Assembly (NCBI GenBank): GCA_030390025.1
Contig: CM059435.1
Coordinates: forward strand, 19,964,001 to 20,028,000
DNA length: 64,000 nucleotides
Reading direction: 5' to 3'
DNA from: Squalus acanthias
Taxonomy: Eukaryota
Under the pieces are notes generated by a model. The model worked only from the letters and a program-made list of their open reading frames with translations. It made no database searches and had not been told where the DNA came from. Of the stretch, positions 7,201 through 10,200 are shown piece by piece (position 1 is the stretch's first letter; every line of letters starts with the position of its first letter). The position numbers were made by a program, and so were the translations under genes.

Positions 7201-10200
7201 CCCAGCCGTTATCAAAGGAACGATCGCCGGCAACAAGGTAAGCCACAGGGAGGTGGGTTTCAGGAGGGTCTCTTGGGAGGCCAACCATGATGGCTGCCCG
7301 AAGCCCTTCCCAGCACTTACCTGGGTGCGAGAGACAGTTTCTTCGGTCCCTGGCAGTGGCCTCCTGCTGCCACATAATCTACTGCCACCCTCTGGCCAGC
7401 TGCTGCTGCCTATTGGTACAGGGCCTACACAGATGAGGCCTGTGAGTTGCAATCTCACGGGCCTCTCGCTGCCAAGCTCGGGATGGCTTGTACCCACTTT
7501 GGCCCAACCCACACGACTGCCAGCCCAAGTTAAAATTGGGGCTATTGTCTTTAGAGCTGGAAAATTAATGTTAATCATGAATCCCAACAACTTCATATCT
7601 TTCATATGTGACTCATAAATATTTCACATTTACACAATTTACCCACAGTAGCCGACACAAAACATTAGGGTAAGGATTGCACTGATCACCGAGGTAAATT
7701 TTATGATTTACTTCTCCCAGTGCAACGCAAGCTCATATTGGGGAGTCAACGTGCTTAAATCACAGTCCGCACAAGTGCTCAATCATAAAATATACAGCTC
7801 TATGTAGTAATATAATAAATCTACTGATGAAGTTATATAATAAACCTATTCACAATAAGAACACAAGAAATAGGAACAGAAGTAGGCCATTCGGCCCTTC
7901 GAGCCTGCTCCACCATTCAATAAGATCATGGCTAATCTTCTACCTCAACTCCACCTTCCTGCACTATCCCCATATCCCTTGATTCCCTTAGTATCGAAAT
8001 CGATCTTGGTCTTGAATATACTTAATGACAGAGCATCCACAGCTCTCTGGGGTAGAGAATTCCATAGATTCACAATCCTTTGAGTGAAGAAATTTCTCAT
8101 CTCAGTCCTAAATGACCGACCCTTTATTCGGAGACTCTGACCCCATGTTCTAGACTCCCCAGCCAGAGGAAACATCCTCCCAACATCTACCCTGTCAAGT
8201 CCCTTAAGAATTTGATACATTTTGAGATCACCTCTCATTCTTCTAAACTCTAGGGAATATAGGCCTAGAACCTCAATCTCTCCTCAGACAATCCCTCCCA
8301 TCTCAGGAATCAGTCTAGTGAACCTTCATTGCACTTCCCTCTAAGGTAAGTATATCCTTCCTTGGGTAAGGAGACCAAAATTGTACACAGTACTCCAGAT
8401 GTGGTCTCACCACAGCCCTATATAATTGATGTGAGAAGTCGCACAACACCAGGTTATAGTCCAACAGTTTTATTTGAAATCACAAGCTTTCGGAGCGCTG
8501 CTCCTTCGTCAGGTGAAGTCACCTGACGAAGGAGCAGCGCTCCGAAAGCTTGTGATTTCAAATAAAACTGTTGGACTATAACCTGGTGTTGTGCGACTTC
8601 TCACATTTGTCCACCCCAGTCCAACACCGGCATCTCCACATCATATATAATTGAAGTAAGACTTCTTTACTCTTGTACTCCAATCCTTTTGTAATAAAGG
8701 CTAACATAACATTTGCTTTCCTAATTGCTCGCTGTACCTGCATGTTAACTTTCTGTGATTCATGTACAAGGACACCCAGGTCCCTCTGATTACCAAGAAT
8801 TCCCAGTCTCTCACCATTTAAAAAATATTCTGCTTTTCTATTTTTAACTACCAAAGTGGATAACTTCACATTTCTCCACATTATACTCCATCTACCATGC
8901 TCTTGCCCACTCACTTAACCTGTCTATATCCCTTTGCAGCCTCTTTAAGTCCTGCTCACAACTTACTTTCCCACCTAGCTTTGTATCCTCTAATTCTGCC
9001 TTCTTGAGGATCCCTGATTAGAATCGCTCAACTATTGGTGGCTGTGCCTTCTGTTGCCTAGTCCCAAAGCTCTGGAATTCCCTGCCTAAACCTCTCCGCC
9101 CTCCTTTAAGACGCTCCTTAAAACCTACCTCTTTGACCAAGCTTTTAGTCACCTGCCCTAATTTCTCCTTATGTGGCTCGGTGTCAAATTTTTTGTCTTA
9201 TAATACTCCTGTGCAGTGCCTTGGGACGTTTTACTATGTTAAAGGCGCTATATAAATACAAGTTGTTGTTGTTGTAGTATCGCCAGCAAACTTGGATACA
9301 TTACACTCGGTCCCCTCATCTAAATCATTGATATAGGTTGTAAATAGCGGAGGCCCAAGCACTGAACCTTGCAGTACCCCATTAGTTACAGCCTGCCAAC
9401 CTGAAAATGACCAGTTTATTCCTACACTCTGTTTTCTGTCCGTTAACCAATCCTCAATCCATGCTAATATAGTACCCCCAATCCCATGAGCCCTAATTTT
9501 GTATAATAACCTCTTGTGTGGCACCTTCTCGAATGCTTTTTGAAAATCCAAATACACCACATTCACTGGTTCCCCTTTATCGGCCCTGCTAGATACAACC
9601 AATGTTCCCTTTAAGCTGCGCAGCGCTCTAGGGGACCCACACAGCCGGTGAACCGGCTTTTAAATTCAAAAAAACGCGCATGCGTGGAATTTTGAATGGG
9701 CCGCACGGCCCAAAGAGAACTAGAGGTAACATTGGTTACAAACTCAAAAAACTCTTAGATTTGTCAAACACGATTTCCCTTTCATAAATCTGATTTGACT
9801 CTGCCCAATCCTATTGGGCCTGAATTTGCGGTCGGCGGCTTCCCACGGGCGAATGCCTCCGAACCACAAGAAAAGTACGAACCTACCCGATGGTCCCGGA
9901 GGTTCGTAGACTCGCGCTCCTGGGCCTCTGTGTATGCATGCATAAAGACCCAGGTATCCCGGGGCACACGCGGTTCGCAAGAGTCTCTGGGATCACGTGA
10001 GCCAGGCCAACCAATCAAAAAGGGGGATCCCCATTATGCTTATGGGGATTACATTTACATACGGAATCCCCATAAGCATGAATAGGAATCCCCTAAAATC
10101 ACAATTACACAGCAGTTAAATAAAAATAAATTACATGTTCAAAATTAATTAAAATACAATTTAATTAAACATTTAAAACAAATATTTAATATTTTGAAAA

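Follow-up and report, generated by a model that had tools for sequence, protein, structure and literature searches.

The 64,000 nucleotides of Squalus acanthias DNA analyzed here (part of contig CM059435.1; hereafter the window) harbor, on the minus strand, a gene of the band 4.1 family that is recognizable by its FERM_M, FERM_C, SAB, and 4_1_CTD domains. An earlier note on this DNA had named the gene EPB41L1; the family assignment stands, but this particular paralogue is not singled out, the best matches among solved structures being 4.1B and 4.1R. The same gene contains a 964-aa acidic open frame (19527-22421, minus strand) in which a Cys-containing unit of 11-12 aa is repeated in tandem many times at approximately 20400-21300; the frame is probably an alternative exon of unusual size. 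Domain matches delimit an intron between two 4.1-CTD exons (approximately 6809-10880, minus strand), and within it lies an older LINE fragment (7860-8985, minus strand, delimited by alignment to a paralogous piece) that is split by the insertion described below. From its C-terminal motif we take this LINE fragment to be of the CR1 type; Pfam gave no match for 8576-8914 or 7945-8283, and the neighboring 9234-9659 matches RVT_1. The region 7860-9800 as a whole is a nest of repeats, comprising the LINE reverse transcriptase (RT) region broken by the element, the 3' end of an opposite-strand LINE (approximately 8990-9275), and a further insert near 9597, where an apparent younger insertion (9597-10600) splits the LINE at 9275-9800. 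Other, imperfect inverted repeats occur in the window at 10023-10093, at 63668-63707, and between 13900-14021 and 15299-15431 (identities 81%, 90%, and 75%).

The insertion itself is a unit of 215 bp at 8429-8643. Its two arms (8429-8516 and 8519-8606) form an inverted repeat of 88 nt with 100% complementarity and a spacing of 2 nt, precisely the perfect palindrome that the earlier note had described. On the right side only, the unit continues into a 37-nt extension (8607-8643, plus strand; 70% A+C), which had been passed over and which resembles the 'tails' reported for Penelope-like elements (PLEs; cf. PMC8557442, PMC3846280). The left half can be read as an inverted, 5'-truncated, tail-less piece of a pseudo-LTR (pLTR) at 8429-8519 on the minus strand, comprising the 88 nt shared with the opposite arm and a further 3 nt of probably templated origin, and the right half as a direct, 5'-truncated pLTR piece (8519-8606, plus strand, from the inverted-repeat analysis) with AATAAA at 8561. 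All three plus-strand frames over 8519-8653 contain a stop codon. Searches within the 64-kb window for further copies of the element gave only matches of at most 23 nt.

The unit is bounded by two copies of a 10-nt target-site duplication (TSD; 8419-8428 and 8644-8653), or 11 nt if A8429 is included. That this is a genuine duplication, as had been proposed, follows from a paralogous LINE piece elsewhere in the window (57470-57810), on which both copies, aligned separately, land on the identical 10 nt (57658-57667). The target is A/T at nine of its ten positions, contains ATT, and is present in a single copy in the paralogous LINE. The two LINE flanks of the insertion, translated separately, are consecutive parts of one LINE frame (one ending in ...KEVLLQLY), and a contig of run X8 carries left-flank LINE sequence that runs directly into the right TSD 10-mer. 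These observations bear on a group of readings in which the palindrome would be a fold-back DNA transposon or MITE, a fragment of a DIRS element, or an artefact of assembly. A long perfect inverted repeat is what such elements would offer, and perfect palindromes can indeed be read artefacts; yet 37 nt separate the right arm from the TSD, so that the inverted repeats do not abut it at both ends as in a MITE, DIRS elements lack the TSD that is present here, and an artefact would sit poorly with a TSD that maps exactly onto an empty paralogous site. As the hammerhead motif and the tail likewise count against them, all three were rejected, and we regard this group as exceedingly improbable.

Each arm contains the core of a hammerhead ribozyme, at 8523 on the plus and at 8512 on the minus strand, with CUGACGA, one extra A, a 5-bp stem II, GAAA, the palindromic AGCU, and U17. 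The direct-arm motif spans 8514-8560 (plus strand) with a 9-bp stem I that includes one G-U pair, extends across the junction, and has its predicted cut after U8551; the inverted-arm motif spans 8480-8516 on the minus strand, is the one read in sense orientation in the host pre-mRNA, and has a stem I of 4 bp, probably in its native context. A strict descriptor for minimal hammerheads matched the window exactly twice, at these two motifs, and not once in 60 Markov-randomized windows of 64 kb. Together with inspection of the cores, it thereby bears out the minimal type I hammerhead claimed for each strand. The motifs display the characters of the minimal hammerheads (min-HHRs) of PLE pLTRs: the CUGANGA/GAAA/UH core, the extra nucleotide, G10.1-C11.1, a palindromic helix III, and a helix I of 4-5 bp. 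The Rfam comparison suggested in the earlier note was less favorable. No hammerhead family of clan CL00010 reached its gathering threshold for the element, the highest score, that of HH10, being 15.3 bits (gathering score 75; E 6.9), presumably because the motif lacks a helix III. A match to mir-1597 (50.9 of 93 bits) was discarded, miRNA matches being artefacts of the perfect hairpin.

Which of the two stems I belongs to the family can be judged from other copies found in contigs of sequencing runs. Two of them match the inverted arm onward through 8517 (plus two ambiguous positions; joint 8517>8552) and through 8519 (joint 8519>8607), and the 2-nt 'spacer' together with T8519 is therefore probably parental sequence on the inverted side. 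The 4-bp form on the minus strand is thus probably the native stem I, with the 9-bp plus-strand stem a by-product of the junction, as far as two contigs can tell; the latter was accordingly rejected as the native stem of the family, and the emphasis that the earlier note had placed on it was probably misplaced. Within the element, a single indel is listed, an insertion of 1 nt in loop II (8496/8497, mirrored at 8538/8539) that leaves stem II intact and accounts for 19% of the depth in run X1, 4% in X8, and close to none in X2 and X3. Common in organism A and nearly absent from organisms B and C, this insertion is a lineage-specific subfamily marker.

A decayed second PLE-like remnant lies in the window at 51545-52375 (plus strand), comprising a GIY-YIG-like frame and a minimal hammerhead. 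For the frame (51584-51802), the best atlas cluster (0.97) has GIY-YIG in 16% of its members, a protein search gave two matches among seven candidates (one with a sub-threshold GIY-YIG), and Pfam returned no match. The second hammerhead, at 52243 and 440 nt past the frame, has A9 replaced by C, a 4-bp stem I, a 5-bp stem II, and another 4-nt palindrome. Its spacing is identical to that of the first hammerhead; seven of the nine stem pairs have both bases exchanged, and helix III is again palindromic, though with a different sequence. This comparison covers two families only, both selected with a descriptor for which pairing is a prerequisite. It illustrates covariation and is no proof of it. 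In a control with the relaxed descriptor, 2-4 matches were obtained in 60 random windows, two of them with a stem I of at least 4 bp.

Beyond the window, the element is highly abundant. Sequencing runs containing at least half of 14 sampled words numbered 14 of the 24 listed and came from at least six organisms; all 14 words were present in runs of three organisms and 13 in three small runs of other organisms. Four runs were aligned to 7600-9300, the three deep ones representing three organisms, and in all three deep runs the depth over bins of the element was approximately 30,000-100,000 times that of the unique flank, a ratio that is not a copy number. Joints that link an inverted to a direct arm make up nine of the 15 in the main joint listing, and three more were found among the joints listed. 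All 12 of these head-to-head joints have different end pairs, with the qualification that the joint sides are only 21-27 letters long and that the variable loop II may simply have broken the alignment in several of the joints with an end at 8538/8539. Random 5' endpoints among copies had been named in advance as the mark of an ordinary truncated Penelope, and by this criterion the varied end pairs among the listed joints therefore place the unit in that class.

Taken together, the 215-bp unit very probably stems from one recent insertion, dead on arrival, of a highly abundant PLE, and consists of two short head-to-head copies of its hammerhead end, one of them tailed. It combines the traits of EN+ PLEs, that is, a head-to-head inverted, 5'-truncated pLTR, a one-sided tail of 37 nt, a short TSD at an A/T-rich target, and, among the 12 listed joints, variable 5' truncation, some of which may reflect alignment breaks. 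PLE insertions are described as often having an inverted 5'-truncated pLTR and a tail of 30-40 bp at one end (PMC8557442), and for rotifer PLEs palindromic junctions of the head-to-head type are reported, together with a tail of 31 bp and TSDs measuring 8, 9, and 10 bp (PMC3846280). The present unit shares with the EN+ insertions of these two accounts the inverted pLTR, the palindromic junction, the one-sided tail, a TSD in the range of 8-10 bp, and a retroelement target; in contrast to them, both halves are here cut to approximately 90-125 nt, with no ORF between. It is thus likely a further instance of the known PLE insertion layout.

The ribozyme motif likewise finds its closest counterparts among PLEs. 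As set out in PMC4209133, min-HHRs of PLE pLTRs have an extra nucleotide before 10.1, G10.1-C11.1, palindromic positions 15.2-16.2, and a helix I of 4-5 bp, and dual min-HHRs on opposite strands, approximately 100-700 bp apart, have already been described. The motifs analyzed here agree in the core, the extra nucleotide before 10.1, G10.1-C11.1, the palindromic helix III positions, and the 4-bp helix I, whereas they lie only approximately 10 bp apart and have a stem II of 5 bp instead of the 7-8 bp in Schistosoma. Further likenesses are found to the Poseidon PLE PAc of Anolis carolinensis, which also has an A/T-rich target with ATT, retains an uncleaved hammerhead, and has an AC-rich tail region that follows the hammerhead core at a distance of approximately 80-115 nt (PMC11167929). 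Compared by description only, PAc differs in that its ORF starts at stem II, where the present unit has stops in the three plus-strand frames. As to the parent, a protein search with the 32-aa open frame at 8556-8651, which runs into the tail, gave a single match, to an unrelated repeat protein. Exact-pattern scans of metagenomes, viral sequences, and prokaryote genomes returned no loci, and the family is absent from the two supplementary files of PMC4209133 that were searched. A literature search, with most subscription papers and repeat databases outside its reach, found no description of the family, sharks included.

The earlier note had offered a second possibility besides a heavily truncated recent Penelope insertion, and only the latter has held. 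In the former, the whole 215-nt hairpin would itself be mobile as a distinct, protein-free palindromic family, either retrozyme-like or SINE-like. A clean TSD around a non-coding unit would be expected of such a family, the recovery of 14 or 13 of the 14 sampled words in runs of six organisms makes a recurrent junction conceivable, and some of the listed joints have a contig depth of 4-30 times that of the unique flank, which indicates that junctions can recur. The 12 listed joints, however, share no internal junction, the ribozyme and the region of the RT start would both lie hidden within the perfect 88-bp stem, and the one-sided tail is a PLE signature. Like non-LTR retrozymes, the unit is non-coding and related to pLTRs, and it has a type I hammerhead and a larger TSD; unlike them, it is a single head-to-head pair that cannot release circles, the defining feature of non-LTR retrozymes being head-to-tail tandems from which circles are released (PMC7229834; 10.64898/2026.07.22.740005). 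The retrozyme was rejected on this head-to-head arrangement and on the lack of a second copy in the 64-kb window, and we consider a distinct family of either kind very unlikely.

The PLE insertion appears to be recent. Neither the arms nor the TSDs contain a single difference in 88+10 duplicated nucleotides (95% upper bound 3.0%), although palindromes can self-repair. The unique flank differs from that of organisms B and C by 18 substitutions in 302 nt (6%), and none of the 26 majority differences listed for the repeat-rich part falls inside the element. Among the joints and contigs listed, there is no joint across 8428-8654 and no contig that spans the element. The insertion probably postdates the divergence from organisms B and C.

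For its origin, we propose a route in which the RT/GIY-YIG protein would be supplied in trans and would nick both strands of the A/T-rich site, 10 nt apart. This is modeled on the PAc protein, a predicted dimer that cleaves A/T-rich (ATT) DNA on both strands, extends both of them, and starts reverse transcription at two sites bounding the tail in an AC-rich stem-loop, with uncleaved RNA being used (PMC11167929). From each nick, a cDNA would be primed at one of two start sites bounding the tail (8606 and 8643); both cDNAs would halt just upstream of the uncleaved hammerhead, close to positions -7 and -4 relative to C3, and would then be joined via a 1-nt overlap. The hammerhead would here be no more than the ordinary pLTR motif of the parent, built for dimer action through AGCU. 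Such twin priming has, in our estimation, a somewhat better than even chance of accounting for the present copy. We lean towards two cDNAs because the tail-less arm seems to be 3 nt longer and because neither kind of single fold-back gives both features: folding back of the tail-bearing strand cannot template the tail-less arm, which apparently reaches 3 nt further 5', and folding back of the tail-less strand cannot yield the tail. The 3 nt in question are themselves deduced from two contigs.

A self-primed fold-back, in which one cDNA or an antisense template of the same PLE would be copied on itself, competes with the twin-priming step only and leaves the identity of the element as it is. 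Self-priming has already been proposed for PLEs (PMC3846280), the junction of the present copy is nearly symmetric, and the joint 8496>8538 forms a palindrome with stem-loop II at its center, just as hairpin self-priming would produce. Next to the strand argument given above, the extension of both strands by PAc in vitro (PMC11167929) speaks against it, and for the present copy we deem it rather unlikely, though a serious contender. Both routes may occur.

A related question is whether the arm ends are set by the ribozyme. Both arms of the present copy have their ends at the base of stem I, and the deepest head-to-head joint among those listed, 8517>8552 (contig depth 938 in X1), has a direct arm that begins at the first base past the predicted hammerhead cut. 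Two RNAs joined in a hammerhead dimer might thus have templated the two cDNAs, with self-cleaved RNA being used in vivo. However, the joint is confounded by a microhomology of at least 2 nt, which accounts for it equally well. The PAc study, as far as available, reports no RNA ends at the hammerhead cut (PMC11167929), and our literature search found no report of PLE 5' ends at this position. We therefore hold the setting of arm ends by the hammerhead to be doubtful, and continue to favor, with the reservation expressed above, twin priming on uncleaved RNA.

As for the host, the orientation of the gene determines which motif is transcribed. The earlier note had put forward the plus-strand motif for assay; the gene being on the minus strand, it is the left-arm motif that the pre-mRNA carries. 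In the same sense, AAUAAA occurs at 8469-8474 (minus strand) in the intron before a C-terminal exon, buried in the hairpin. The notion that the 88-bp stem outcompetes the ribozyme fold gains support from folding predictions, with -183 kcal/mol for the hairpin as compared to -10.8 for the hammerhead fold and a probability of stem II of approximately 1e-19. Since the antisense arm would be transcribed first and would trap the motif in the stem, the ribozyme at this locus is predicted to be inert. One may nevertheless ask whether the host has co-opted the unit as a working intronic ribozyme or as a regulatory hairpin that acts through cleavage, editing, small RNAs, or premature polyadenylation, given that the core is intact, that the AAUAAA is in pre-mRNA sense, and that a long perfect dsRNA lies within the intron. 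Apart from the trapping by the antisense arm, this is countered by the apparent age of the element, whose arrival seems to postdate the divergence from organisms B and C, and by its position in a decayed LINE. Min-HHRs are, furthermore, inactive as monomers and weak as dimers in vitro (PMC4209133), and the modeled dimer of the present hammerhead (-20.7 kcal/mol) gains nothing over two monomers (-21.6 kcal/mol). The RNA runs on record, each with fewer than five of the sampled words, speak neither for nor against expression or editing. Co-option by the host is, in our view, highly unlikely, and a dead-on-arrival PLE stump with a silenced ribozyme remains the preferred reading.

As a single locus, the unit is of little weight, for stumps of this known class are very numerous. 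With arms of approximately 90 nt, it nevertheless brings the two RT start sites, the junction, and the TSD into view together, and so constitutes a minimal record of the unexplained integration of PLEs. Tabulated across the genome, such stumps could tell twin priming from fold-back and show whether arm ends accumulate at the position of the ribozyme cut. If the hammerhead does set the arm ends, this would amount to genomic evidence for hammerhead action in the PLE cycle, in contrast to the PAc study. For the genomes that carry them, such insertions place long perfect hairpins in introns, with the ribozyme there predicted to be silent.
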